DNA of 64,000 nt from Aquificaceae bacterium. GTDB lineage: Bacteria; Aquificota; Aquificia; Aquificales; Aquificaceae. The notes below the pieces were generated by a model. That model was given only the letters and a program-made list of their open reading frames with translations. It made no database searches and was not told where the DNA came from. A program made the translations under genes and the position numbers. Shown one piece after another: positions 7,084 to 17,721 of the stretch (the first letter of the stretch is position 1; every line of letters begins with the position of its first letter). Location: the NCBI GenBank assembly GCA_039630345.1, contig JBCNVD010000034.1, positions 3,231 to 67,230 of the forward strand, given 5' to 3'.

Positions 7084-8751
7084 CTATTTTGCAACCTCTA
7101 CATGCCTTGTCTCTCTAATTACCACGACCTTTATCTGCCCTGGAAACTGCAGCTGCTCTTCTATCTTCCTTGCTATTTCTCTGGAAAGCCAGTGCGATTC
7201 CTCGTCAGAGAGCTCTTCCGGGTTTACTATCACCCTTACCTCTCTTCCTGCCTGCACCGCATAGACGTTGTTAACCCCTTTAAAAGAGCGCGCTATCTCT
7301 TCAAGCTTTTCAAGGCGTTTTAAATAAAGCTCTAAACTCTCTCTCCTTGCCCCGGGTCTTGCCGCAGATAGAGCGTCAGCTGCACAAACCAGAGCCACCT
7401 CCGGGTATCTTATAGGCTCTTCGTCATGATGAGCCCTTATGGCATTTAAAACCGCATCGTGCTCGCCAAACTTTCTGCAAAGCTCCACACCTATATCTGT
7501 ATGCGAACCGCCGGTCTCGTTTGAGATGGCTTTTCCAATGTCGTGTAAAAGCCCCGCTCTTCTTGCAAGCTGTGCGTTTAGCCCAAGCTCGCTTGCCATT
7601 AGCCCCGCAAGATTTGCAACCTCTTTTGAGTGAATCAAAACGTTTTGAGAGTAGCTGGTTCTAAAGTAGAGCTTGCCAATGTAGTAATATAGCGCAGGGT
7701 TTATGTCATTTAACCCAAGCTCGTAGCAGGTCTCTTCACCCGTTTTGCGAATCTTTTCGTCGATTTCTCTCTTTACCTCGTTTACGACCTCCTCTATCCT
7801 TGCAGGATGTATCCTCCCGTCCTGAATTAGCCTCTCAAGGGCTTCTCTTGCAATCTCTCTTCTAAGAGGGTCAAAGGAAGATATCGTAACTATATCAGGG
7901 GTGTCATCGATAATTAAGTCAACACCCGTTAATAACTCAAAAGTCCTTATGTTCCTGCCCTCTCTCCCTATGATTCTGCCTTTAAATTCGTTGTTAGGAA
8001 GCTCTACGGATGTGGTAGTGTAATTAACCGCAATCTCTGAGGAGAGTTTCTGTATGCTTGTTGTTATTATGCGCTTTGCCTCAAGCTCTGCTCTCTCTCT
8101 TGCCTCTTCTTCAATACGCTTTATTAGCTTTAAAACCTCTGCTTTTGACTCTTCTTCTGCTCTTTTGAGTATCTCAACTCTCGCTTCCTGCATCGTCATG
8201 CTGGCAATTCTTTGAAGCTCAAGCATCTCTTTTTGTCTTATACTCTCAATTTCCCGCTCTTTTTCCTCAAGACTTAAAGCTCTTACCTCAATAGCCTTTT
8301 GCTCTGCCTCTATGCGCTTTTTGGCTTCTCTGAGCTCTCTTTCCATGTTAAAGAGCTCTTCTTCTCTTCTTGAGAGGAGATTTTCTCTTCTCTCTAAGGC
8401 GCTCTCTCTTTGCTTTAAACTCTGGTCAAGACTTGCAATCTGGGCTTTTATTTCAGATAGATATTCCTCGACCTGCTTTTTCTTCTGCTCAAGCTCTAAC
8501 TTTATAGCCTCGCTCTCCTCTCTTGCGCTCTGTTTTATCCTGAGAGCTTCTTCTCTTGCATCCTCAAGGATTTTTTCTGCTTCCTGAGCGGCTCTTTCTC
8601 TTAGCTCTATGGCTTCTGCCCTCTCTAATTCCTCGCCACTGCTTTCTGGCAAAGCTATGCTCTGACTAACCTCTGGTTTGTTTCTAAAGACCAAAAAAAT
8701 TACTGTCAGAGCTAGAAAAACTATAACCAAAACCAAAAACGCTGTTAGCAT
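7084..8751 (-). CDS. rny: Ribonuclease Y
   Basis: N-terminal TM helix, a long E/K/R coiled coil, KH domain 'GRIIGREGRNIRTFELLTGVDLIIDD', and HD domain 'LLHDIGKA'. Confidence 0.9.
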   Translation of the reverse strand: MLTAFLVLVIVFLALTVIFLVFRNKPEVSQSIALPESSGEELERAEAIELRERAAQEAEKILEDAREEALRIKQSAREESEAIKLELEQKKKQVEEYLSEIKAQIASLDQSLKQRESALERRENLLSRREEELFNMERELREAKKRIEAEQKAIEVRALSLEEKEREIESIRQKEMLELQRIASMTMQEARVEILKRAEEESKAEVLKLIKRIEEEARERAELEAKRIITTSIQKLSSEIAVNYTTTSVELPNNEFKGRIIGREGRNIRTFELLTGVDLIIDDTPDIVTISSFDPLRREIAREALERLIQDGRIHPARIEEVVNEVKREIDEKIRKTGEETCYELGLNDINPALYYYIGKLYFRTSYSQNVLIHSKEVANLAGLMASELGLNAQLARRAGLLHDIGKAISNETGGSHTDIGVELCRKFGEHDAVLNAIRAHHDEEPIRYPEVALVCAADALSAARPGARRESLELYLKRLEKLEEIARSFKGVNNVYAVQAGREVRVIVNPEELSDEESHWLSREIARKIEEQLQFPGQIKVVVIRETRHVEVAK

Positions 8752-9296
8752 GTCAAACCTCCTGATGTTCTTTTTTCAGTTATCACCATATCAACCCTTT
8801 CGTCCCAGCTATCATATTCAAGCTCCTGAATGAGCTCCTCGTCAAAGCAAACGCCTATCTTTGGAGCTCTAACCAGCTTTAAAAACCTGTCGTAGTATCC
8901 TCCCCCGTATCCCAGCCTATAACCTCTTAAGTCAAAGCAAATGCCAGGCACTATTGCCAGCTCTAAGTCTGAAGGCTCTTTTGCAATTAACCCTTCAGGC
9001 TCTAAAGTCCCAAAAGGACCTCTCTTTAATATGCCTCTAAACTCAAACAGCAAAAGCCCGCCCTTTGCAACTGCTGGCAATAAAAGCTTTATACCTTCTT
9101 TATTTAGCTCCTGAAAAAAAGACCATAGCTGTGGCTCTTTCTTTATTGGCCAAAACCCAAGAATGGCTTTTGGTTTTAAATGAGAGATTATCTCTCTAAG
9201 TCTCATTGAGATATAAAAAGACCTCTTCTGTATATCTTCCTGGCTCATAAAGAGCCTTCTTTTTATAAAACTTCTTCTTAGATGCTCTTTTACCAT
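8745..9296 (-). CDS. 5-formyltetrahydrofolate cyclo-ligase
   Basis: Start taken at the ATG at 9296 ('MVKEHLRRSFIKRR...') with 'ggaggcggaaga' upstream. Contains 'VPGICFDLRGYRLGYGGGYYDRFL', typical of the MTHFS family. Confidence 0.8.
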   Translation of the reverse strand: MVKEHLRRSFIKRRLFMSQEDIQKRSFYISMRLREIISHLKPKAILGFWPIKKEPQLWSFFQELNKEGIKLLLPAVAKGGLLLFEFRGILKRGPFGTLEPEGLIAKEPSDLELAIVPGICFDLRGYRLGYGGGYYDRFLKLVRAPKIGVCFDEELIQELEYDSWDERVDMVITEKRTSGGLTC

Positions 9297-9299
9297 TCT

Positions 9300-9490
9300 T
9301 CCGCCTCCAGCCTGTTTTCGGAGGGGAAGGCAAACCCGCCCTTGCCGTGACTCAGGGACTATGTGGGCCCCAAACAAACTAAGGTGGGTGTCCTCCCGGA
9401 GCTCCTATGTGGATACCCCGGAGACCGGACTCCCTATTAAGGTCCCATGTGGACCCCAAATTCTGCCCTTACGCCACAAGCAGGGCAGGC
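9300..9490 (-). ncRNA. Candidate structured RNA (6S RNA or leader) in the pheT to 5-FCL spacer
   Basis: A 196-nt gap between co-directional genes that otherwise overlap. It is much more GC-rich than the flanks. A 'GGGG-N(1-3)-CCACAT(A/G)G' motif occurs three times, and several local hairpins are present. Its position directly upstream of a 5-FCL (ygfA-type) gene mirrors the ssrS-ygfA linkage known in proteobacteria. I could not derive a full 6S-like fold by hand. Confidence 0.35.
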
Positions 9491-9492
9491 TT

Positions 9493-11601
9493 TTATCTCA
9501 ATCTTGCGCCAAATCTCTCCTCAAGGAGAGACAGCATCTTGCCAACTATGGCATTAACTTCCTCGTCAGAGAGTGTTTTTCCAGGGTCTCTAAATTTCAC
9601 TCTCAGACCTACGCTCTTTTTGCCTTCCCCAACGCCTAAGTAAATGTCAAACACCTTCACCTCTTCCACATTTGCAAATTCAAGCACCAAGTTAACTAAT
9701 TTAGCCACTTCTATCTCTCTGTCTACTACAACACTTAAATCCCTCACTACAGGAGCGAAGTTTGAAATTCTCTTAAATTCCGGTTTTTTCCTTACTGGCT
9801 TTTCAAATAATACCTCTCCAACATAGATTTCCCCCCTTAGCTCAAGTTTTTTTGCAACTTCAGGGTTTAAAATACCTACAAAACCCCTTATCTCGTCATC
9901 TTTTTTGTAGACAACTTGGACCCCCGGATGCAAAAACCCCAGCTTTTCCCTGCTTATTTCAAGCCCTTGGGTGAACTTTAAAATCTCATGAAATACTTCC
10001 ATAGCATCCCAGATATCATAATTTCTTGCCGGATAGAGTCTCTTTTCTCCAACTATTAAAAATCCAGCCCCGTAGAGCTCTCTCTTAGATTTATATACGC
10101 TATCTAACTCAAATATTGCCATGGAGTAGTTATGCCTGCTTTGGTTATAAGCACATGTCTTTAAAAGCCCTGTTATTATATTAGACCTTATGAATCTCAA
10201 TGATTTAACAAGCGGGTTAAGGATTTCTATCTTAGGTACATCCAGCCCAAGAATCTCGTAAACATCAGCCCCTTCAAAGGAGAAGTTTATAACCTCGTAA
10301 AGCCCAAGAGAGGTCAATCTATCTCTTAGCTCTTCTATTAAATCCTGCTCTTTATCACTTGCAGGGACACAAACCCTCTTTTTTTCAAAATTATCAAGCC
10401 CCTCAAGACGCATAAACTCTTCAATAAGGTCAACATCTTCTTTAATGTCATGCTCTCTCCAGCCAGGGACTTTCACATTTAAAACCCCGTTTTCAAAATG
10501 GCATTTAAATCCAATCCTTTCAAGAGCCTTTGAAATGTCTTCTTTTTTAACTTCTTTGCCGGCATACAATCTTAGTTTCTCAGGATTTAATCTTAAAATT
10601 TTCTCTTCTGAGAGATTTTCAACTATCTCAACCTTTACTATCTTGCCTTTGCAAAGCTCTTTAATCATCTCAAGGGCAATTGCAAACGCTCTTTTAACGC
10701 CCCTTTTGTCAACCCCTCTCTCAAATCGAAAAGAGCTCTCTGTTCTTACATTGACTGATTTAAAAGACCTTCTTACCCTGCGCGCATTAAAATAAGCCCC
10801 CTCAAGAAAGCACCTTTTTGTGCTTTTGCTAACTGCGCTATTTAAACCCCCCACAACACCCGCAAGGGCTCTAACCTCCTGCCTATCAGCTATAACCAGA
10901 TTTTCAGCCCCTAAACTTAGCTTCTCACCAGAGAGGGTTATAAACTCCTCTTTTGGCTTTGCATCTCTTACCTCAAGCGGGAGAGTTATCCTCTCTAGGT
11001 CAAAAGCGTGAAGAGGCTGACCTGTTAGCATCATCACATAGTTTGTAATATCAACAAGGGCATTAATTGGTCTAACCCCGCATTGCAAAAGTCTTTTAAC
11101 CATCCATTGTGGCGAAGGGCCTATCTCAAGCTCTTCTATAATCGCCCCTATGTATAGCTCGCAATCCTGCGATTTGATCTCAATAAGCCCCTGTGCGTTT
11201 GATTTAAGCTCTGGCGCCTCCAGCGGCTTTAAGTGGCTATCTGTAAGGGCAGCTATTTCCCTCCCAAGCCCATAAACGCTTAATAAATCCCCCCTGTTTG
11301 GCGTTGGGTCAATTTCGATAATTTCCTCACCATAGCCCAGCGCTTCTGAAAGGGTTCTGACGCTTAATTGCCCGCCAAGGCAAAATCTGTCTTCTACGCC
11401 AAATCCAAGGTCTTTGTAGGTTATGACTCTATTGCCATCTTTGGCTACATAAAACCCTTCCAGGAGCTCTAAATTACCATCAACCCCAAGGTCAAAGTAA
11501 GATATTGTGGCCTCTACGCTCTTTAAAGATAAAAGGTTTGCAACCTCCTTTGGGTCTTTGACCTCCACAAACTCCCTTAGCCACTCAAGCCCTAATTTCA
11601 C
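9493..11601 (-). CDS. pheT: Phenylalanyl-tRNA synthetase beta subunit
   Basis: 702 aa starting 'MKLGLEWLREFVEV' (GTG start). B3/4, B5, FDX-ACB-type domain order, ending '...LSLLEERFGARLR'. Confidence 0.9.
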   Translation of the reverse strand: MKLGLEWLREFVEVKDPKEVANLLSLKSVEATISYFDLGVDGNLELLEGFYVAKDGNRVITYKDLGFGVEDRFCLGGQLSVRTLSEALGYGEEIIEIDPTPNRGDLLSVYGLGREIAALTDSHLKPLEAPELKSNAQGLIEIKSQDCELYIGAIIEELEIGPSPQWMVKRLLQCGVRPINALVDITNYVMMLTGQPLHAFDLERITLPLEVRDAKPKEEFITLSGEKLSLGAENLVIADRQEVRALAGVVGGLNSAVSKSTKRCFLEGAYFNARRVRRSFKSVNVRTESSFRFERGVDKRGVKRAFAIALEMIKELCKGKIVKVEIVENLSEEKILRLNPEKLRLYAGKEVKKEDISKALERIGFKCHFENGVLNVKVPGWREHDIKEDVDLIEEFMRLEGLDNFEKKRVCVPASDKEQDLIEELRDRLTSLGLYEVINFSFEGADVYEILGLDVPKIEILNPLVKSLRFIRSNIITGLLKTCAYNQSRHNYSMAIFELDSVYKSKRELYGAGFLIVGEKRLYPARNYDIWDAMEVFHEILKFTQGLEISREKLGFLHPGVQVVYKKDDEIRGFVGILNPEVAKKLELRGEIYVGEVLFEKPVRKKPEFKRISNFAPVVRDLSVVVDREIEVAKLVNLVLEFANVEEVKVFDIYLGVGEGKKSVGLRVKFRDPGKTLSDEEVNAIVGKMLSLLEERFGARLR

Positions 11602-11611
11602 TTAAATAATT

Positions 11612-11636
11612 ATAAAAACCCGCCCCTTCGGGGCGG
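11612..11636 (-). terminator. Intrinsic-terminator-like hairpin plus U5 on the minus strand, 12 nt upstream of the pheT start (orphan terminator or attenuator)
   Basis: Minus strand reads 'ccgcccc-gaa-ggggcgg' followed by 'ttttt'. No minus-strand ORF lies upstream of it. Confidence 0.5.
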
Positions 11637-11771
11637 AGATAGTTTTGTGCAAAGCTTTTACTCTCAAACAGGCCTGTCAAGCATTGCTTCTTTTACTCTC
11701 TAACAACTTTCCAGAATCTTTACCTTCCGTCTTTGTGTATATCTCATTTTATCCCCTTTTTGATGTCAAGA

Positions 11772-11801
11772 TGACTCTTTAAGGCTAAATTATGGTATAA
11801 T
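11772..11801 (+). promoter_or_regulatory. Putative extended -10 promoter for the AAA/helicase operon
   Basis: 'TGgTATAAT' (TATAAT at 11796-11801) with a weak -35 'tgactc' 18 nt upstream. It would give a leader of about 145 nt before the ATG at 11953. Confidence 0.4.
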
Positions 11802-11952: not shown

Positions 11953-13185
11953 ATGATAAGAATTATTAGAACCAAAGATTTTAAAAGGGTTTTACAAAAG
12001 CTGCAAGAGTCCTTACAGGAAGAGAATTTGCAAAATGGGAGCACTTACAGAATGCTGGTCTTTGGCGAGGGCATAGAGAGGATAGAAGGAACAGGCTTTA
12101 ACAAAGACCGATTCATTAGCGACTTAAAAAGCGGTCAAGAACTGACCTATGTTTTTAGAAACTTCAACCCTTTTTCTATTGATGAGCTTGTGCAAATTGC
12201 TGAGAAATATCTCCTTGCGGGAAATCCACTAAGAGTTGTCTTTCTATCCCCAACAATGGAAATTCCCCCGGAGCTTGAACCTTATGTAGATATAGAAGAA
12301 GACTATTTCCCAAGCCCTAAAGAGGCAAAGGCAGAAGGTCTTAATTATTTAGAGGGTCTTACTCTGGCAGAGCTTAAGAAAATAAGTCTTCTTAAGCTAA
12401 ATCCTTCAGAATACAGACACAACATTCTCAAAAGGTCTGGTGGAGTGCTGGAACTCCTTAAACCACACGAGGTAGATAGGGCTGTCGGGCTTTTTGAAAC
12501 CATACAGGTCATAAAAGCCATGAAGGGCAAAGGAAAAGGAGTGCTCCTTATGGGCGTTCCCGGAACGGGTAAGACATTAATAGCCAAGAACTTATCCAGA
12601 GAGGACACTGTTGTAAGGTTTAACTTCTCTGCAGTTTATACAAAGTATGTGGGAGAGAGCGAGCGAAAGCTGAGAGAGACTCTTAGGCTCGTTGAGGAGT
12701 TTGGCGAGTGCTATCTGTTTATCGATGAGTTTGAAAAGGCTCTTGCCATGGGCAGTGGAGATAGCGGTGTCTCCAGAAGGCTTCTTGGAGAGTTTCTTGG
12801 CTGGCTAGAGGATAGACCTACCAGGCAGTATTTAATAGCTACTGTCAATGACCTTACTGAGCTTCCCTTAGAGCTTATAAGGCCGGGTCGCTGGGATTTT
12901 ATCTTTGGTCTAACCCCACCCCCGCAGAGCGTGAGAAATCAGATAGTGGATTATTATGCCCAGAAGTATTCCCTGTCTTTTGATGAAAAGCTTGCAGAAA
13001 CGCAGGATATAACACCTGCAGATATAGCCACAATTTACCGGGTTGGAGCTGCGCTGGGCTTAAGTAGAGCCAGAAAGCTAGTAAAACTAACCAGAGATTT
13101 GCACCCAAAGTTTGACATAGTTCTTGAGCTGGTAAAAAGATACTCAGTGCTCGTGTGGGAGGAGCAAAATGAATACACTTTATGA
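11953..13185 (+). CDS. AAA+ ATPase, Ycf46-like (classic AAA clade) with an N-terminal Ycf46-type domain
   Basis: SD 'aaaggagg'. Walker A 'GVPGTGKT', Walker B 'YLFIDEFE', 'YVGESERKLR', 'GDSGVSRRLLGEFLGWLED', 'ATVNDLTELPLELIRPGRWD'. The N-terminal 'VFRNFNPF...VVFLSPTMEIPPELEPYV' pattern resembles Ycf46. Confidence 0.85.
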   Translation: MIRIIRTKDFKRVLQKLQESLQEENLQNGSTYRMLVFGEGIERIEGTGFNKDRFISDLKSGQELTYVFRNFNPFSIDELVQIAEKYLLAGNPLRVVFLSPTMEIPPELEPYVDIEEDYFPSPKEAKAEGLNYLEGLTLAELKKISLLKLNPSEYRHNILKRSGGVLELLKPHEVDRAVGLFETIQVIKAMKGKGKGVLLMGVPGTGKTLIAKNLSREDTVVRFNFSAVYTKYVGESERKLRETLRLVEEFGECYLFIDEFEKALAMGSGDSGVSRRLLGEFLGWLEDRPTRQYLIATVNDLTELPLELIRPGRWDFIFGLTPPPQSVRNQIVDYYAQKYSLSFDEKLAETQDITPADIATIYRVGAALGLSRARKLVKLTRDLHPKFDIVLELVKRYSVLVWEEQNEYTL

Positions 13186-14749
13186 GTGGCAGAGAGATTG
13201 TCTTGAAGTTATAAAAGATAAAAACGCCATAGTGTCTGCTCCCACGGGTGCGGGAAAGACCAGAGTTGCATACCTTTGGATGGAGCCACAGAAGGCTAAA
13301 GAAGGTAGACACAGGATTATCTACACGACCCCTATAAAAGCCCTTGCCAACCAGAAAGTCGAAGAGCTTATAGAACTCTACGGCAAAGACCTGGTGGGCA
13401 TAGAAACCGGTGACATAAAACGCAGAGAAAACGCCCCTATTTTGGTCTGCACTCAGGAAATTTACACCAGAAAGTATGCACACAAAGAAGAGCCTATGAG
13501 AGTGGTGATAGATGAGTTTCACTACATTTTCTCCGCTCAGGATAGAGCAAGGGCATATATACAGGGTATAGCAAAAGCCCATAGCGCTCACAAAATACTC
13601 ATAATGTCCGCTACTTTGGGAAACCCTCAAAAATTAAGGGACTATCTTTTTAAAACCACAAGCAAGGACTTTGCTCTGTATGAGACGAGCTTTAGACCCA
13701 CCAAGCTTACTTTTACAGACAGGGTTTTTAAGCTCGAGGAGATACCTCCTCATTCTTTAATTTATATTCTTAATACGGTTAGTATTGAAAGTATTGCAAA
13801 ACATCTAACGACCAAGCTCCCGGCGCTTCCTCTTTATAAAAGGAGAAAGATCAAACTTTTAGCAGATGAGTATAAGGTCAACCTCGAGAAATTCCCTGAA
13901 GTTTTTCACGGCGTTGCAAGATATTACTCAAGGCTTACTTACACAGAAAAGCGCTGGATAGAGAGACTCATAAAAGAAGGCTTTATCCATACTTGCTTTG
14001 CCACGAATGCACTCGGGGTGGGGGTTAACCTCCCATTCCAGTGGGTTCTCTTTGGTGGTGTGCGCCTACCTGGCATAGGGAGCACTAAATATCTTTCCAA
14101 AACCGACTTTCTTCAGCTATCTGGTAGAGCCGGAAGAAAAGGCTACTTTGATGAAGGTTTTGTAGGCTTCCTCTGGCATGATTTTCACTGCTACTATGAA
14201 GATATGCAAGAAAGTTTAGAAGAGTTTTTAAAACTCAAAGATAGACCCATGGAAGAGCCAAATGTGGTTTTAAAAATCGATGTGGAAGCCATAGTAAAAG
14301 GTCAAAGAACTCCCGAAGAAGAATATCAATACATCTTGCATTTCTCAGAGCCACCACCTGAAGAGTCAAAACTAAAAGAGGAATTAGAAAGAATAAAAAA
14401 AGAACTATCAAAAATTCAAGCAGGACAGCTGGAGTTTTTGAAAAGGTTTTATATCCCTGAACTTGATCTCCATAGCAACATAGAGCTTGCCAGGATGGTC
14501 CTGAGTCTTCCTGTAGTTGAATATAAAACCAAGAGGGGAAAAACATACAAAGCGCGGATTATTACCCCTTCGCTACTGAAATTCTTGGAAAAGTCAGACC
14601 AAATAAATTCTCTTTTGCTTAAAAGAAAGGTTTTAAAAATGCTAAACCGCAGGACCTTTGAAGGTATTCGTATAAGATGCTTGGGTATAGTGAAATTGGA
14701 AGATCAAATAAAAGCTCTTGACCCATTACTTTTGGAGGTGGGCGCATGA
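13169..14749 (+). CDS. Compact Ski2-like (DExH, SF2) helicase
   Basis: Motif I 'SAPTGAGKT', Ia 'TTPIKALANQK' (Ski2/Mtr4/Hel308 signature), II 'DEFH', III 'SAT', V 'FATNALGVGVNLP', VI 'QLSGRAGRKG'. SD 'gggaggag'. Overlaps the AAA gene by 17 nt. Confidence 0.85.
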   Translation: MNTLYEWQRDCLEVIKDKNAIVSAPTGAGKTRVAYLWMEPQKAKEGRHRIIYTTPIKALANQKVEELIELYGKDLVGIETGDIKRRENAPILVCTQEIYTRKYAHKEEPMRVVIDEFHYIFSAQDRARAYIQGIAKAHSAHKILIMSATLGNPQKLRDYLFKTTSKDFALYETSFRPTKLTFTDRVFKLEEIPPHSLIYILNTVSIESIAKHLTTKLPALPLYKRRKIKLLADEYKVNLEKFPEVFHGVARYYSRLTYTEKRWIERLIKEGFIHTCFATNALGVGVNLPFQWVLFGGVRLPGIGSTKYLSKTDFLQLSGRAGRKGYFDEGFVGFLWHDFHCYYEDMQESLEEFLKLKDRPMEEPNVVLKIDVEAIVKGQRTPEEEYQYILHFSEPPPEESKLKEELERIKKELSKIQAGQLEFLKRFYIPELDLHSNIELARMVLSLPVVEYKTKRGKTYKARIITPSLLKFLEKSDQINSLLLKRKVLKMLNRRTFEGIRIRCLGIVKLEDQIKALDPLLLEVGA

Positions 14750-15348
14750 TAGGAGTTTTGGAAATCAGCGAAAGTGGCAAAATCCTATTTCTCAGGGATA
14801 GAAAACGTAGCAGTTTTATGTTAATAAAAGAAAGTAGCAGGGAAAACCCTTTGCCTGAAGGGTATTATGTGGTTAGGCTTTTGGAATACTGGAGAAGTAG
14901 CAAGAGGACATTTCCTTACCTCTCGCTTGTAAAACCTTTGCCTGATTTGGAGAAAGATCCTCAAGAGGCTGCCTTAGCCTTATCAGAGATACCTCTGGAA
15001 ATCCAGAAGGAAGTTGTGGAAATTCTCACGCAGATGGGACAGGATATTAGCAGGATAAAAAACATCCTCAATTGCATAGCTATAAATGACAGAGGAGAGC
15101 TCCTTTGGGATGAAGAGCCAAAAGAGGATGAGTTTTTAAAAGAGCTCTTTATAAGCATAGATGAAGTAAGGAGGAAATATCATGAGATACTTGGAATTAA
15201 GCAAGAAAGGAAGAGTAAAAACCTTCAAGGGAGACTTTCCGCAGGTCGAAGCCCTGCTAAAAGAAAAAAGAGAAGAAAGAATAAGCCAAATAGTGCCAAA
15301 AAAGATATTACTCAGAATTCTCTGGAAGGTATTCAGATGGAGTTTTGA
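14746..15348 (+). CDS. Hypothetical protein (200 aa): OB/cold-shock-like N-terminus, acidic helical middle, highly basic tail
   Basis: ATGA start/stop overlap with the helicase and SD 'ggaggtg'. N-terminus 'GVLEISESGKILFLRDRK...EGYYVVRLLEY' resembles Rho/RNase R CSD-type OB folds. Tail 'RSPAKRKKRRKNKPNSAKK'. Confidence 0.6.
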   Translation: MIGVLEISESGKILFLRDRKRSSFMLIKESSRENPLPEGYYVVRLLEYWRSSKRTFPYLSLVKPLPDLEKDPQEAALALSEIPLEIQKEVVEILTQMGQDISRIKNILNCIAINDRGELLWDEEPKEDEFLKELFISIDEVRRKYHEILGIKQERKSKNLQGRLSAGRSPAKRKKRRKNKPNSAKKDITQNSLEGIQMEF

Positions 15349-15502
15349 GAAATTAGGCTACCAGAGGGGCATTAACTGGCTTAGGAGCTGGAAAGTAAGC
15401 TGGGTGGTAGTTATAAATGGAAGGGAAATGGCTGTATTTAAAGAAAGAGCAAAAGCCATAGAGTGGGAGAAGAAACACTTTATTAGAGGAGGTTTGCCAT
15501 GA
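15182..15502 (+). CDS. Hypothetical protein (106 aa), out-of-frame overlap with the preceding gene
   Basis: Strong SD 'taaggagg' 7 nt before the ATG at 15182. Its stop overlaps the next start (ATGA). I recognise no family. Confidence 0.5.
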   Translation: MRYLELSKKGRVKTFKGDFPQVEALLKEKREERISQIVPKKILLRILWKVFRWSFEKLGYQRGINWLRSWKVSWVVVINGREMAVFKERAKAIEWEKKHFIRGGLP

Positions 15503-15879
15503 GTATAAGAGTAGAAGGCATTATCGACCTGCCTTATTTTGACCTCAGAGACATACATACCTTGCAAGAGCTCCTGATGTTTTTAAAAGAGAATGAACTA
15601 TGTAAAGAGCTCAAAGATTACAGGGTTTTTGTCGAAGGAGGTATTTTGAAATTAGAGCACTCTAAAAGAAGCTGGAGCTACATAGAGATATCCCCCGAAG
15701 GGAGACTTGTCTGGGACGAGCATTATAGAGAAACTGTGGAAGAAAAAGACTCAATCCTTGGCGCTATAAGAGAATACTACCCTATGTTTAAAAAAGCGCT
15801 TGAGATACACTTGCAGGTGGGAGGAACAATCAGATACGACAGAGAAAGAGAGCTCATAATTCTGGAGGTTGAAGAATGA
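15499..15879 (+). CDS. DUF1257 (Ycf35)-like protein
   Basis: 126 aa with SD 'agaggagg'. The 'MS...I.DL...L..LL' N-terminus, central 'YIEISPEGRLVWDE', and C-terminal 'L..IREYY....L......G.I.......ELIILEV' resemble Ycf35/DUF1257 as I remember it. Confidence 0.5.
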   Translation: MSIRVEGIIDLPYFDLRDIHTLQELLMFLKENELCKELKDYRVFVEGGILKLEHSKRSWSYIEISPEGRLVWDEHYRETVEEKDSILGAIREYYPMFKKALEIHLQVGGTIRYDRERELIILEVEE

Positions 15880-16070
15880 GAAAAATAGTCTTTACCATAA
15901 CAAAAGAGGGGCAGGTCTTTTTGCAGGCGGAAGGTTATGAAAATCAGGAGTGCTTAAAAAGCCCCAGAGTTCAAAAATTGCTCGAAAGACTCAAACAAGA
16001 AGGCGAGATAGAGAGAGTGGAGCTTGAAGGACAAAAAGAAAGTCTTAAACAGGAAGAAAAGCTCTGGTAA
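15876..16070 (+). CDS. DUF2997-like small protein
   Basis: 64 aa with SD 'ggagg' and an ATGA overlap. 'KIVFTITKEGQVFLQAEGYENQECLKS' fits the DUF2997 pattern (I.f.I..dG.v...v.G..g..C). DUF2997 is typically adjacent to DUF1257. Confidence 0.5.
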   Translation: MRKIVFTITKEGQVFLQAEGYENQECLKSPRVQKLLERLKQEGEIERVELEGQKESLKQEEKLW

Positions 16071-16079
16071 AAGGGCTTT

Positions 16080-16532
16080 TTAATCTATCTTAAAAGATAG
16101 ACCTGGCTTTATGCTTTTGAGTTTGCCATCTTTATCAAAGGTAAATGTCGAAGGCAGAAACTCAATCGTGTAAAACTCATTTAGCTTAACTGGAGTGTCA
16201 ACCAGCGTTATAAATTCCGGGTTTTGTATTTTCATCTCTTCATAGCTTGATTTAACGTCTTTGATATCCATAGCAACTGCGTAAGAGACTATGTAGATGT
16301 CTTTTCTTTCCTTTGCAATTCTCTGTAGCTCTTTGAGGTGTCTTTCGTGCCCTACGCAGGTTCTGCTCCAGACATATAAAATAACTGGCTTTCCCCTAAG
16401 AGAGTTTAAGTATAGTTCTGTCCCTTGAAGGTCTCTTACCTTAATGCGCGGAAGCGCGTTCTGGCAAGAGAAAATTCCTAAAAGAATAAAAACTTTAAGC
16501 GTTAACCAGAACTTTCTCTTTAAAGTCTGCAA
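16080..16532 (-). CDS. TlpA/redoxin-like thioredoxin-fold lipoprotein with a single-Cys active site
   Basis: Lipobox 'LLGIFSC'. Thioredoxin-fold 'KPVILYVWSRTCVGHERH', where the usual CxxC is C-V-G-H. 'LPSTFTFDKDGKL'. Confidence 0.65.
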   Translation of the reverse strand: MQTLKRKFWLTLKVFILLGIFSCQNALPRIKVRDLQGTELYLNSLRGKPVILYVWSRTCVGHERHLKELQRIAKERKDIYIVSYAVAMDIKDVKSSYEEMKIQNPEFITLVDTPVKLNEFYTIEFLPSTFTFDKDGKLKSIKPGLSFKID

Positions 16533-17721
16533 GGGTTGGCTTAATTACTACCGGCGTTTGCAAATTGCCCTCTAAAACCTCGGCGGTTTTGTAGCCATTT
16601 CCGGTTATGTAAGCTACCACAACCTCATCTGGCTTTAATAGCCCTTTTGTTGCCAGCTTTTTCAAAACTGCTATGGTCGTCCCGCCTGCGGTTTCTGTAA
16701 AAATCCCCTCTGTTTTTGCAAGTAGCCTGATGCCTTCTATTATCTCTTCGTCAGTTGCTACTTCAAAGCCGCCGTTTGTTTTTCTTGCAACTTCAAGAGC
16801 GTATATTCCGTCTGCCGGGTTACCTATTGCTATGGACTTTGCTATGGTGTTTGGTTTAACAGGGTCTACGAATTTTTTGCCCTCAAGCCACGCTTTTGCA
16901 ACCGGCGAACAACCAAGAGCCTGCGCGCCATAGATTCTGGTATGCATTGAATCTGTGAGTCCGACTTTGAAAAACTCTTCTATGCCTTTATAGACCTTTG
17001 TCAGGAGTGAGCCTGACGCTACCGGAACGACTACCGCATCGGGCACTCGCCAGTTTAGCTGTTCTATTACTTCAAAAGCGAGGGTTTTTGAGCCTTCTGC
17101 ATAGTAAGGTCTTAGGTTAACATTTACAAAAGCCCAGCCAAAGTCGTTTGCTATTTCAGAGCAAAGTCTGTTAACATCATCATAATCGCCCTCAACTGCT
17201 ACCACGGTTGGGTTAAATACTAAACTTCCTATTATTTTCTGGAGCTCTAAGTTTGCAGGTATAAATACAAAGCAGTTAAGACCGGCTTGCGCACAGTGAC
17301 TTGCTACGGAGTTTGCAAGATTTCCAGTTGAAGCACATGCGCCTGTGTCAAATCCCATCTCGATTGCTTTTGATATTGCAACTGCGACTACTCGGTCTTT
17401 GAAAGACAACGTTGGATGATTCACCGAATCGTCTTTTATGTAAAGATTTTTAAGTCCAAGTGCTTCTCCAAGGGATTTTGCGTGCTTTAGAGGGGTAAAG
17501 CCTGCGTGAAAACCAACCTTTGGCTCTGCAGGTAGCAGGTCTTTGTATCTCCATAGGCTTTTTGGTCCTGATTGTATCTTCTCCCTTGAGATTTGGCTTG
17601 CTATTTTTTGATAATCATAAATAGCTTCTAAAGGTCCAAGGCAAAAATCACAAACATGTATAGGCTCGGGCGGGTGCTCTTTGCCACACTCTTTGCACTT
17701 AAGACCTATCAGGTTAAACAT
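16495..17721 (-). CDS. thrC: Threonine synthase
   Basis: N-terminal Zn-ribbon 'CKECGKEH...CDFC', PLP-lysine motif 'PTLSFKDR', 'GNLANSVA'. Confidence 0.9.
   Translation of the reverse strand: MFNLIGLKCKECGKEHPPEPIHVCDFCLGPLEAIYDYQKIASQISREKIQSGPKSLWRYKDLLPAEPKVGFHAGFTPLKHAKSLGEALGLKNLYIKDDSVNHPTLSFKDRVVAVAISKAIEMGFDTGACASTGNLANSVASHCAQAGLNCFVFIPANLELQKIIGSLVFNPTVVAVEGDYDDVNRLCSEIANDFGWAFVNVNLRPYYAEGSKTLAFEVIEQLNWRVPDAVVVPVASGSLLTKVYKGIEEFFKVGLTDSMHTRIYGAQALGCSPVAKAWLEGKKFVDPVKPNTIAKSIAIGNPADGIYALEVARKTNGGFEVATDEEIIEGIRLLAKTEGIFTETAGGTTIAVLKKLATKGLLKPDEVVVAYITGNGYKTAEVLEGNLQTPVVIKPTLADFKEKVLVNA

Follow-up and report, generated by a model that had tools for sequence, protein, structure and literature searches.

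A mobile six-gene module that joins a Cdc48-like AAA+ ATPase to a Ski2-type helicase in hot-spring bacteria

A cluster of six genes was analysed within a window of 64,000 nucleotides from the metagenome-assembled genome of an Aquificaceae bacterium. These genes make up a self-contained module that is mobile by horizontal transfer and is kept together in hot-spring bacteria. It is built on a triad composed of an AAA+ ATPase (g1), a small protein in the place of DUF1257 (g5) and a distant DUF2997 protein (g6), and is extended by the helicase g2 and the orphan proteins g3 and g4. The parent triad, a Ycf46-type AAA+ ATPase with DUF1257 (Ycf35) and DUF2997, is uncharacterised and occurs on plasmids of cyanobacteria and the Bacillus group, on phage-plasmids and on viral contigs. 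We infer that the module is a new, expanded variant of it. No published description of the six-gene ensemble was found, which agrees with an earlier note on this DNA that considered it undescribed.

Layout of the cluster

Six consecutive open reading frames are tightly packed at 11953–16070 of the plus strand, with overlaps of 17, 4 (ATGA), 167, 4 and 4 nt, and a GGAGG lies 6–7 nt ahead of the ATG start in each of them. Their products are the AAA+ ATPase g1 (11953–13185, 410 aa), the short DExH (DEFH) SF2 helicase g2 of the Ski2/Mtr4/Hel308 type (13169–14749, 526 aa), the orphan protein g3 (14746–15348, 200 aa), the Arg/Trp-rich orphan g4 (15182–15502, 106 aa), g5, with a predicted TBP-like topology (15499–15879, 126 aa), and g6 (15876–16070, 64 aa). 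Coordinates and overlaps match exactly those of the linked, Shine-Dalgarno-led genes described in the earlier note, and six overlapping genes, each with its own GGAGG, support its claim of a single operon. The surroundings are on the minus strand, as had also been noted: Pfam identifies pheT (9493–11601) upstream and divergent, and an AhpC/TSA-fold protein (16080–16532) and a thrC-like PALP enzyme (16495–17721) downstream and convergent. The sign of the GC skew switches across the cluster.

Direct reading of the sequence points to a possible extended −10 promoter element, TGGTATAAT (11793–11801, plus strand), which would leave a leader of ~145 nt before g1 and was missed by a consensus promoter scan because a good −35 is absent. 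The region upstream of g1 shows no conservation with respect to L007, a related chromosomal locus, and the folding of the leader is not unusual (z = 0.63). At the other end, the consensus scan gave a tentative terminator-like hairpin (16056–16081, plus strand), with a 10-pair stem containing only 3 G-C pairs and a weak T-run, which covers the g6 stop and adjoins the convergent AhpC/TSA gene.

Conservation of the six genes as a set

All six genes are present in 11/11 related loci long enough to judge, and the set is retained down to 33–44% identity in at least five gene orders (1-2-3-4-5-6, 5-6-1-2-3-4, 1-2-4-3-5-6, 1-2-x-5-6-x-3-4 and 2-3-1-5-6-4). Homologues of g1 and g2 co-occur on the same contigs. 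In the one suitable pair of loci (L163/L164), dN/dS is 0.07–0.10 for each gene, which places all six under purifying selection. These comparative data, with the complete set kept through several rearrangements, establish the presumed co-conservation and refute a chance juxtaposition, that is, unrelated genes adjacent by accident in one genome. The translational coupling of the six genes and the low dN/dS throughout them also stand against such an accident, which retains practically no probability; all that speaks for it is the occurrence of the helicase family in Synergistota as well, where close g2 relatives are solitary, with none of the module partners.

The triad core

The g1 protein is a classic-clade, Cdc48-like AAA+ ATPase (PF00004 at 2e-20), in which a non-P-loop α/β N-domain (~residues 1–116) and a linker precede one classic-clade AAA module. 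It contains the Walker A GVPGTGKT, the pore loop KYVG, the Walker B FIDEFE, and the stretches GDSGVSRR and RPGRWD. The closest solved structures are VAT, p97 and Cdc48, and the full chain of the AF2 model (pLDDT 82) was aligned by Foldseek to the two-ring Cdc48/Drg1/Rix7 proteins at E 1e-15, superposing on both D1 and D2. The classic-clade module and the KYVG loop are shared with the type II unfoldases Cdc48, p97 and VAT, but the N-terminal “D1-like” domain of g1 lacks a P-loop, and therefore only one ring would be active. Unlike those systems, the module has no Cdc48 N-domain and no UBX or Npl4-type cofactors, and g1 is linked to a helicase gene. As a further parallel, small partner proteins would serve as adaptors.

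When compared with the AAA ATPases linked to DUF1257/DUF2997, g1 gave a BLASTP match of 1e-30 whose alignment spans the N-domain, and the N-domain by itself reached 96.2% in hhalign (E 2.6e-9); the common GDSG-S-R signature is a further likeness. The N-domain is thus homologous to that of the ATPases adjoining DUF1257/DUF2997 on plasmids and viral contigs, and the proposed placement of g1 near Ycf46 is sustained, as it falls into the same AAA subfamily as these companions.

The relationship of g6 is visible at the family level. By itself it matches PF11211 at E 0.032, whereas 7/9 members of its family match that profile (best 7e-5), and profile–profile comparison of the family with real DUF2997 proteins gave 95.5% in hhalign (E 1.3e-8). 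The earlier assignment to DUF2997 therefore holds, in the sense of a distant member. The protein has an N-terminal β-hairpin motif, one invariant cysteine (C26) and an acidic tail whose last residue is hydrophobic or aromatic.

The g5 gene, invariably directly upstream of g6, had been taken for DUF1257, an identity that is not supported, as it fails every sequence test: none of 9 family members has a Pfam match at E ≤ 10, hhalign against real DUF1257 proteins gave 0.1–0.5%, and among 1.84 billion proteins, searched exhaustively by profile, only 13 g5-like representatives turned up, which defines a rare family. The two agree only in position, size and colinear layout. The AF2 model of g5 (pLDDT 87, pTM 0.79) consists of β-α-β4-α plus a hairpin, and its weak matches to TBP-like folds (best E 0.014) suggest a fold of this kind.

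The triad was found in 7/8 annotated plasmid loci and in 8 IMG/VR viral contigs. In common with the module, it has a ~126-aa protein immediately upstream of the DUF2997 gene, it occurs in the order small-small-AAA and it is carried by mobile elements. It differs in that its AAA+ proteins have 508–549 aa, compared with 410 aa for g1, in that g5 is not recognisable as DUF1257, and in that the Ski2-like helicase, g3 and g4, obligatory in the module, are absent in 16/16 plasmid and viral triads examined. Its accessories are instead DUF3150 or unrelated proteins of 293–393 aa, each lineage having its own, in a pattern of “conserved core plus variable module”.

The helicase

Pfam assigns DEAD (1.7e-18), ResIII and Helicase_C to g2, and 30 homologues show no variation in motifs I, Ia (TPIKALANQK), Ib, II, III, V and VI. 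The nearest solved structures are Mtr4/Dob1 (2e-31), followed by Ski2, Brr2 and Hel308, which confirms the Ski2-like nature attributed to this protein. Partial Hel308-type matches were obtained in NCBIfam, together with phrog_6819 at 1.6e-34. The full motif set, including Ia and DEFH, is shared with Hel308/Hjm, Mtr4, Ski2, HamB and BrxHI; unlike these relatives, g2 has just 526 aa and is partnered with an AAA+ unfoldase. The Hel308 and Mtr4 matches end at ~residue 330–350, and the C-terminal 180 aa are family-specific.

The resemblance to Mtr4/Dob1, Ski2 and Brr2, all RNA helicases, favours the reading of the earlier note, an RNA-directed machine that unwinds or unfolds in the service of RNA surveillance or quality control, comparable to Mtr4/Ski2 with the exosome, or to the pairing of Slh1 and Cdc48 in ribosome quality control. 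Also in its favour, a gene for an RNA-binding ASCH protein adjoins the triad of Planktothrix, and expression of the ycf46 operon is anticorrelated with that of ribosomal genes in Synechococcus. Nevertheless, g2 is about equally similar to RNA helicases (Mtr4) and to DNA helicases of the same family (Hel308/Hjm), none of the loci examined links the module to an RNase, exosome-like or ribosome-associated gene, and the patchy, mobile-element-borne distribution is unlike that of a housekeeping RNA pathway. Such a role is considered improbable.

The module is very unlikely to be a divergent representative of a defence system that already has a name (Hachiman (HamAB), IetAS or Cas3-type). PADLOC matched g2 to HamB (its top match, 2.8e-25) and Cas3 (1e-14), and g1 to IetA (1e-9); g1 also matched IteA in NCBIfam (1.3e-7). 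These matches are nonetheless confined to generic helicase and ATPase cores and lie far under the curated thresholds, with 31 bits for IteA in NCBIfam against a cut-off of 510. HamB proteins have 800–1100 aa, and the partners HamA (the Hachiman nuclease), IetS and Cas are absent. With IetAS (IteAS), an anti-phage system, the module shares a classic-clade AAA+ ATPase component, but it has five other partners and lacks the IetS/S8 protease. The remaining four proteins match none of these systems: PADLOC gives nothing credible for g3, g5 and g6, and for g4 only weak partial matches to CARF/HEPN models (E 0.001–0.011).

The orphan proteins

No match to g3 was found in Pfam, NCBIfam, PADLOC, PHROG or PDB, and no complete locus lacks a homologue of it (dN/dS 0.10). 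It has a conserved core of ~160 aa, followed by a basic tail of ~40 aa that overlaps g4. The tail had been regarded as a trait of the protein, a view that fails in L005, L007 and L009, where g3 stops at ~161–163 aa; it is present only where the stop is changed to Gln, in the frame overlapping g4, and is a lineage-specific read-through.

The start codon of g4 lies within g3, in another frame. Its 8 homologues share 17 invariant residues over the full length, including the overlapped N-terminal half, the gene is free-standing, without overlap, in L087, L163, L164 and L091, and its dN/dS is 0.10. By these comparisons g4 is a real overlapping gene. It has no family match in Pfam, NCBIfam or PHROG.

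Genomic context and proposed role

Most relatives of the module are located on conjugative or integrative elements and not amid housekeeping genes, a setting beyond the reach of the earlier note. The module is placed after DnaC-like loader and DnaB genes in L009, also beside genes for a NikA-like RHH protein and SLT; near a TraG/TraD coupling protein, a topoisomerase, SLT and an integrase in L157; near an actin-like segregation protein in L164; and between SSB plus RNase H and an SF1 helicase in L090, with an Alp7A-like protein nearby and a TM-SAVED gene inserted within the module. Chromosomal sites are variable, with different flanks in every genome.

This company makes it possible, though rather unlikely, that the module assists plasmids and integrative elements as an accessory in replication, repair or conjugative DNA processing. 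The Hel308-like helicase would then work on forks or transferred single strands, the AAA+ remodeller, aided by its adaptors, would strip replication or relaxosome proteins or activate them, much as DnaK and ClpA/X strip or activate plasmid and phage initiators, and the chromosomal copies, that of the window included, would be leftovers. The neighbours in L009 and L090, the coupling, topoisomerase and partition genes beside the L157 and L164 modules, and the matches of g2 to Hel308/Hjm speak for it, as do triads near ThyX, UvrD and primase (Bacillus and Paenibacillus), near DnaQ (Trichormus) or merged with GrpE and Hsp70 in one cluster (Pseudanabaena). On the other hand, both the window copy and L007 remain intact at different chromosomal sites, amid housekeeping genes and with no replicon genes nearby, and within the elements the module has no constant position with respect to the replication genes. 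Classic-clade AAA proteins are not known to load helicases.

Several observations hint at a role in conflict between mobile elements and their hosts: the TM-SAVED gene inside the module in L090, the toxin–antitoxin and RloB/ATPase genes among the triad neighbours on cyanobacterial plasmids, the variable accessories around the triad core, and the fact that HamB, the best PADLOC match of g2, and BrxHI are Ski2-like helicases serving in antiviral defence (Hachiman in the case of HamB; PMC12839542). Against it, none of the six proteins is recognisable as an effector (nuclease, protease, toxin or membrane protein), and the PADLOC results described above, with generic cores in g1 and g2 and little or nothing in the other four, count in the same sense. 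Ycf46 and Ycf35, core genes of cyanobacteria and plastids, are tied to carbon use, circadian timing and stress arrest, and not to defence, and the triad is often beside genes of replication, nucleotide metabolism and chaperones. The partnerless helicases of Synergistota and the weak fold match of g5 likewise weigh against the explanation that follows.

With somewhat less than even confidence, we propose that the six products form a single ATP-driven machine that remodels nucleic acid–protein complexes. The helicase would load onto single-stranded nucleic acid and translocate 3′→5′, and g4, rich in Arg and Trp, and the TBP-like g5 may bind nucleic acid or mark the target. The pair g5 and g6 would act as adaptors, the acidic, hydrophobic-ended tail of g6 being a candidate docking peptide that recruits the g1 hexamer. 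The KYVG pore loop and other motifs of g1, and its Cdc48-like structure, argue for an unfoldase, which would thread, unfold or extract protein through the pore in the Cdc48 fashion. Since the module is found both as cargo of conjugative and integrative elements and as a solitary chromosomal survivor, such a machine would most likely serve conflict between mobile element and host, a housekeeping role being less likely; it may defend against incoming DNA, or protect and establish the element that carries it.

Organization of the six-gene cluster

The six consecutive + strand genes at 11953–16070 coincide exactly with the ORF list of the window, as the earlier note had them: g1 (11953–13185, 410 aa) encodes an AAA+ ATPase, g2 (13169–14749, 526 aa) a Ski2-like helicase, g3 (14746–15348, 200 aa), g4 (15182–15502, 106 aa) and g5 (15499–15879, 126 aa) three small orphan proteins, and g6 (15876–16070, 64 aa) a DUF2997-like protein. 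Successive genes overlap by 17, 4, 167, 4 and 4 nt, and a GGAGG sequence is found 6–7 nt 5′ of the ATG in all six. The neighbours, which lie on the minus strand, are pheT and genes for an AhpC/TSA-fold protein, a thrC-like PALP enzyme and an SLT/TPR protein; the GC skew changes sign across the cluster. A possible extended −10 element, TGGTATAAT, can be read at 11793–11801, 150 nt upstream of g1, and a consensus scan places a weak hairpin across the g6 stop codon. A conserved leader, a riboswitch and att sites were rejected: the g1 leader has no Rfam match, no conservation with that of L007, a locus carrying another copy of the cluster, and no unusual fold, and a search for att sites at both copies found neither direct repeats on the flanks nor an adjoining tRNA.

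The 350-nt region 5′ of g1 also contains a 16-nt direct repeat, CTTTTACTCTC(A/T)AACA (11655–11670 and 11690–11705, 35 nt apart), which is absent from L007 and may be an operator pair. On the minus strand, a G+C-rich hairpin, CCCGCCCC-GAA-GGGGCGGA, followed by a T-run (11609–11637), ends about 8 nt before the GTG assigned as the pheT start (11601). This hairpin may be an attenuator in the leader or may terminate an unseen transcript, or else it may indicate that the start of pheT has been placed wrongly. Directly past the pheT stop there is a 6S RNA gene (9329–9494, minus strand; RF00013, 47.8 bits, E 2.7e-7), overlapped by several mechanical ORFs and followed by a 5-formyltetrahydrofolate cyclo-ligase-like ORF (8745–9377), the classic ssrS-ygfA arrangement.

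Conservation and mobility of the module

Relatives of the cluster were reached by three routes: from g5, from the helicase, and by a metagenome scan with a narrow g5 alignment. All six genes are present in each of the 11 independent loci long enough to judge (L007, L008, L009, L087, L090, L091, L152, L154, L155, L157 and L164; L087, L088 and L163 are one contig, counted once), and the contigs that end early carry module genes only, up to their ends. This co-conservation is complete despite five gene orders: 1-2-3-4-5-6 in the window, L007 and L152; 5-6-1-2-3-4 in L002, L008–L010 and L154–L161; 1-2-4-3-5-6 in L087 and L164; 1-2-x-5-6-x-x-3-4 in L090; and 2-3-1-5-6-4 in L091. The adjacency of g5 and g6, in this direction, is constant in every order, with g1 always within the same cluster. 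Full-length g1 homologues (~27 clusters) and the closest helicases pair one-for-one by the size of the carrying contig, and dN/dS is 0.07–0.10 for each gene in the single pair compared (L163/L164). The six genes form one obligatorily linked, mobile unit, and the module is solidly real.

The sample series of the window contig also contains a second, diverged copy (~67% amino acid identity), on the contigs L004, L005 and L006, where an extra 150-aa ORF without Pfam match is found between g4 and g5 (456–908, 646–1098 and 59–511, respectively). In L155, a frameshift splits g3 into two ORFs (9664–10283). The database protein P0256 (67 aa) joins the N-terminus of g5 to the C-terminus of g4, a chimera that arose by deletion or is an assembly artefact.

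The module is found mostly on mobile elements. Its neighbours are a sigma factor, a DnaC-like loader, DnaB, a NikA-like RHH protein, an ExoVII-like protein and SLT genes in L009; a TraG/TraD coupling protein, a topoisomerase, a methyltransferase, an SLT protein and an integrase in L157; an actin-like segregation protein in L164; and SSB, RNase H, an XRE protein, an SF1 helicase and an Alp7A-like protein in L090, from Persephonella sp. KM09-Lau-8. The copies in the window and L007 are chromosomal, at different sites. The frequent closeness of replication genes would suit an accessory of replication or transfer, and it weakens the alternative that the module acts in conflict between element and host. 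We nevertheless favour the conflict role, tentatively, because the module is mobile, self-contained, patchily distributed and kept alone in chromosomes; an accessory function appears rather unlikely.

In L090, the module is interrupted between g6 and g3 by a gene whose 166-aa product begins with a hydrophobic helix and contains a SAVED domain (14607–15107 of JNLL01000002.1; PF18145, 4.4e-12), and a weakly Gad2-like protein is encoded upstream.

The AAA+ ATPase and its relation to the triad

The g1 protein is a classic-clade AAA+ ATPase (PF00004, 2e-20), whose best solved relatives by sequence are VAT, p97 and Cdc48. Its Walker A (GVPGTGKT), pore loop (KYVG), Walker B (FIDEFE) and RPGRWD motifs are all invariant within the family. 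In the AF2 model (pLDDT 82) the N-domain is a five-stranded α/β structure without a P-loop, in agreement with the sequence of residues 1–190, and the whole predicted chain superposes on the two-ring proteins Cdc48, Drg1 and Rix7 (E about 1e-15). Like Cdc48 and p97, g1 has the threading AAA module (Walker A and B, aromatic pore loop and arginine fingers), but it differs from them in having neither two ATPase rings (D1 and D2) nor the double-psi-barrel N-domain; a Pfam search gave no Cdc48_N match, and the N-terminal domain superposes on Cdc48 D1 as a fold only. Its sequence and modelled fold are those of a substrate-threading unfoldase, an activity that is predicted.

The earlier note had recognized g1 as Ycf46-like, and its subfamily is indeed that of the ATPases found in the triad, the neighbourhood of a Ycf46-type AAA+ ATPase, DUF1257 (Ycf35, PF06868) and DUF2997 (PF11211). 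BLASTP aligns g1 from residue 4 with triad ATPases of Paenibacillus, B. thuringiensis and Planktothrix (1e-30), and the isolated N-domains are matched by hhalign with 96.2% (E 2.6e-9, 183 columns). By the Ycf46 signature, we provisionally take the plasmid triad ATPases to be Ycf46 proteins. Real DUF1257 genes were fetched with consensus-like probes, which were validated with Pfam (163.5 and 82.7 bits) and served only to retrieve annotated genes. An AAA ATPase of 508–549 aa, DUF1257 and DUF2997 occur together in seven of eight annotated loci with plasmid DUF1257 genes, and the order AAA, DUF1257, DUF2997 is found on eight IMG/VR viral contigs. None of 16 plasmid and viral triad loci contains the Ski2-like helicase, g3 or g4; in their place are DUF3150 proteins or unrelated proteins of 293–393 aa, and these accessory proteins show no relation to g3 or g4. 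The module shares with the triad the ATPase with the family's own N-domain, a DUF2997 protein and the neighbouring position of the genes, but it has no DUF1257 protein, g5 standing in its place. Because the N-domain is shared and triad loci lack the helicase, g3 and g4, we regard the module as an expanded variant of the triad. The triad superfamily consists of a conserved core and variable modules, which argues further for the conflict role.

Among the viral contigs, a 328–355-aa DUF3150 protein (PF11348, 7e-21 and 1.5e-25) is always 3′ of the AAA gene (L107, L114, L115, L120 and L124); the unrelated proteins belong to cyanobacterial plasmids and Bacillus-group records. On the Pseudanabaena galeata plasmid pPg_01 (L096, 2864–8808), genes for GrpE and an Hsp70-family protein directly precede DUF1257, an ABC/OLD-like ‘ATP-binding protein’ and a 167-aa protein are encoded between DUF1257 and the DUF2997–AAA pair, and the region is bounded by RelE/ParE and PIN genes.

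Two other origins or identities were rejected for g1. Full-length relatives are absent from GenBank phages and IMG/VR, where matches cover the AAA core only, which speaks against a phage origin. Compared with the IetAS/IteAS defence system, g1 scores 31 bits against an NCBIfam IteA cut-off of 510, its PADLOC IetA match (1e-9) is confined to the AAA core, and the IetS protease was not found.

The small proteins

No match to g3 was found in Pfam, NCBIfam, PADLOC, PHROGs or PDB profiles, and to g4 only weak partial CARF/HEPN matches in PADLOC (E 0.001–0.011), which were dismissed because the conserved R-x4-6-H motif is absent. Despite starting inside g3, g4 is a true gene: it has its own Shine–Dalgarno sequence and 17 invariant residues, some of them in the half overlapped by g3, and it is free-standing in three lineages. 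The basic tail of g3, on which the earlier note had drawn, did not hold up as a feature of the family; it is limited to the window and the L008 group, and we interpret it as read-through, since in L005, L007 and L009 a stop codon ends the frame some 40 codons sooner.

The last gene was borne out as DUF2997-like. Alone, g6 scores below threshold against PF11211 (E 0.032, 14.6 bits; threshold 24.1), but seven of nine family members match it (best 7e-5), and seven annotated DUF2997 proteins are matched by hhalign with 95.5% (E 1.3e-8), so that g6 is, as judged from these profiles, a distant member. An acidic stretch capped by a hydrophobic or aromatic residue forms the C-terminus of g6 and of DUF2997 proteins alike.

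The proposed DUF1257 identity of g5, by contrast, was rejected at the sequence level by Pfam searches of nine proteins, a profile search and three hhalign runs. Neither PF06868 (at E<=10, in g5 and eight homologues) nor any other Pfam family matches the nine family members. Among 1.84 billion representatives, searched exhaustively with a profile, there were 13 matches, none recognizable as DUF1257: 12 are g5-like, and the other, a repeat protein of 612 aa, aligns over a short stretch only. Comparison with 8 and with 16 real DUF1257 sequences by hhalign gave 0.1% and 0.5%. The agreement is confined to gene position, length, the ‘MS’ start and a colinear low-confidence alignment. The AF2 model of g5, a confident one (pLDDT 87, pTM 0.79), has the element order β-α-β4-long α-hairpin of a single TBP-type domain; in PDB and BFVD, Foldseek found weak TBP-like matches and nothing below E 0.01.

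The Ski2-type helicase

All Ski2/Hel308-type motifs, I, Ia, Ib, II (DExH), III, V and VI, are present in g2, and APTGAGKT, TPIKALxN, TGD, TQE, DEFH, SAT, TxAxGVNLP and QxxGRAGR are invariant across 30 homologues. Pfam finds DEAD, ResIII and Helicase_C domains, NCBIfam partial Hel308-type models (1e-20 to 1e-24) and PHROGs the Hjm-like phrog_6819; the nearest solved relatives by phmmer are Mtr4/Dob1 (2e-31), Ski2 (1e-26), Brr2 (2.5e-23) and Hel308 (1e-15 to 1e-17), with sequence matches stopping near residue 330–352. The Ski2-like assignment made from the sequence stands, and g2 is a Ski2-type translocase. With relatives such as Mtr4 and Ski2, the module might be an RNA surveillance machine, a variant of the RNA-directed role suggested earlier; given its mobile, patchy occurrence we consider this improbable, and rank it below both the conflict role and a replication or transfer accessory.

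The helicase family is broad, and not all of it is bound to the module, since the Synergistota members (~35% identical) are solitary in variable neighbourhoods, without an AAA ATPase or small partners. With respect to the Hachiman defence system, the PADLOC HamB matches of g2 are partial, covering about 130–160 residues of models of >=850, and PADLOC finds no HamA (DUF1837 nuclease) partner among g1 and g3–g6.

Proposed role of the module

Two components connect the module with a known but uncharacterised neighbourhood, two are members of well-known superfamilies, and three represent orphan families. In the mechanism that we propose, g2 would track 3′→5′ along single-stranded nucleic acid, which the Arg/Trp-rich g4 and the TBP-like g5 may also bind; g5 and g6 would bring in the g1 hexamer, the acidic, hydrophobic-ended tail of g6 resembling a docking peptide; and g1 would then extract or unfold the bound protein.

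The module does not correspond to a named defence system: PADLOC and NCBIfam matches are to generic ATPase and helicase cores only, and no system matching the six-gene ensemble was found in these databases or in literature searches. Several observations weaken the conflict role: no effector domain was found among the six proteins; g3, g5 and g6 carry no defence-database signature, g4 having the weak CARF/HEPN matches only; and the cyanobacterial Ycf46 and Ycf35 serve housekeeping functions. A possible but doubtful, more specific form of the conflict role is an undescribed class of system of conjugative elements in thermophiles, in which the helicase would find foreign or transferred nucleic acid and the g5/g6-targeted unfoldase would take the bound protein apart. 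The Ycf46, Ycf35 and DUF2997 proteins of cyanobacteria and plastids would, by extension, form an unfoldase–adaptor set with nucleic-acid-bound clients.

The module documents a real 167-nt gene overlap (g3/g4) and defines three new orphan families (g3, g4 and g5). It also gives the little-known conjugative elements of Aquificota a candidate module for conflict or DNA processing, and its proteins, which come from thermophiles, suit biochemistry and cryo-EM. Ycf46, Ycf35 and DUF2997, conserved from cyanobacteria to plastids and present on many plasmids and phages, have long been enigmatic. In the literature searched, five papers mention DUF1257 or DUF2997, as annotations only, and Ycf46 is described as a KaiC-interacting AAA protein, encoded in a stress-induced three-gene operon, with no biochemical function given. 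By tying the ATPase–adaptor core obligatorily to a helicase and two likely nucleic-acid-binding proteins, the module offers a testable idea, an unfoldase working on nucleic-acid-bound clients, and with it a handle on the Ycf46/Ycf35 problem.
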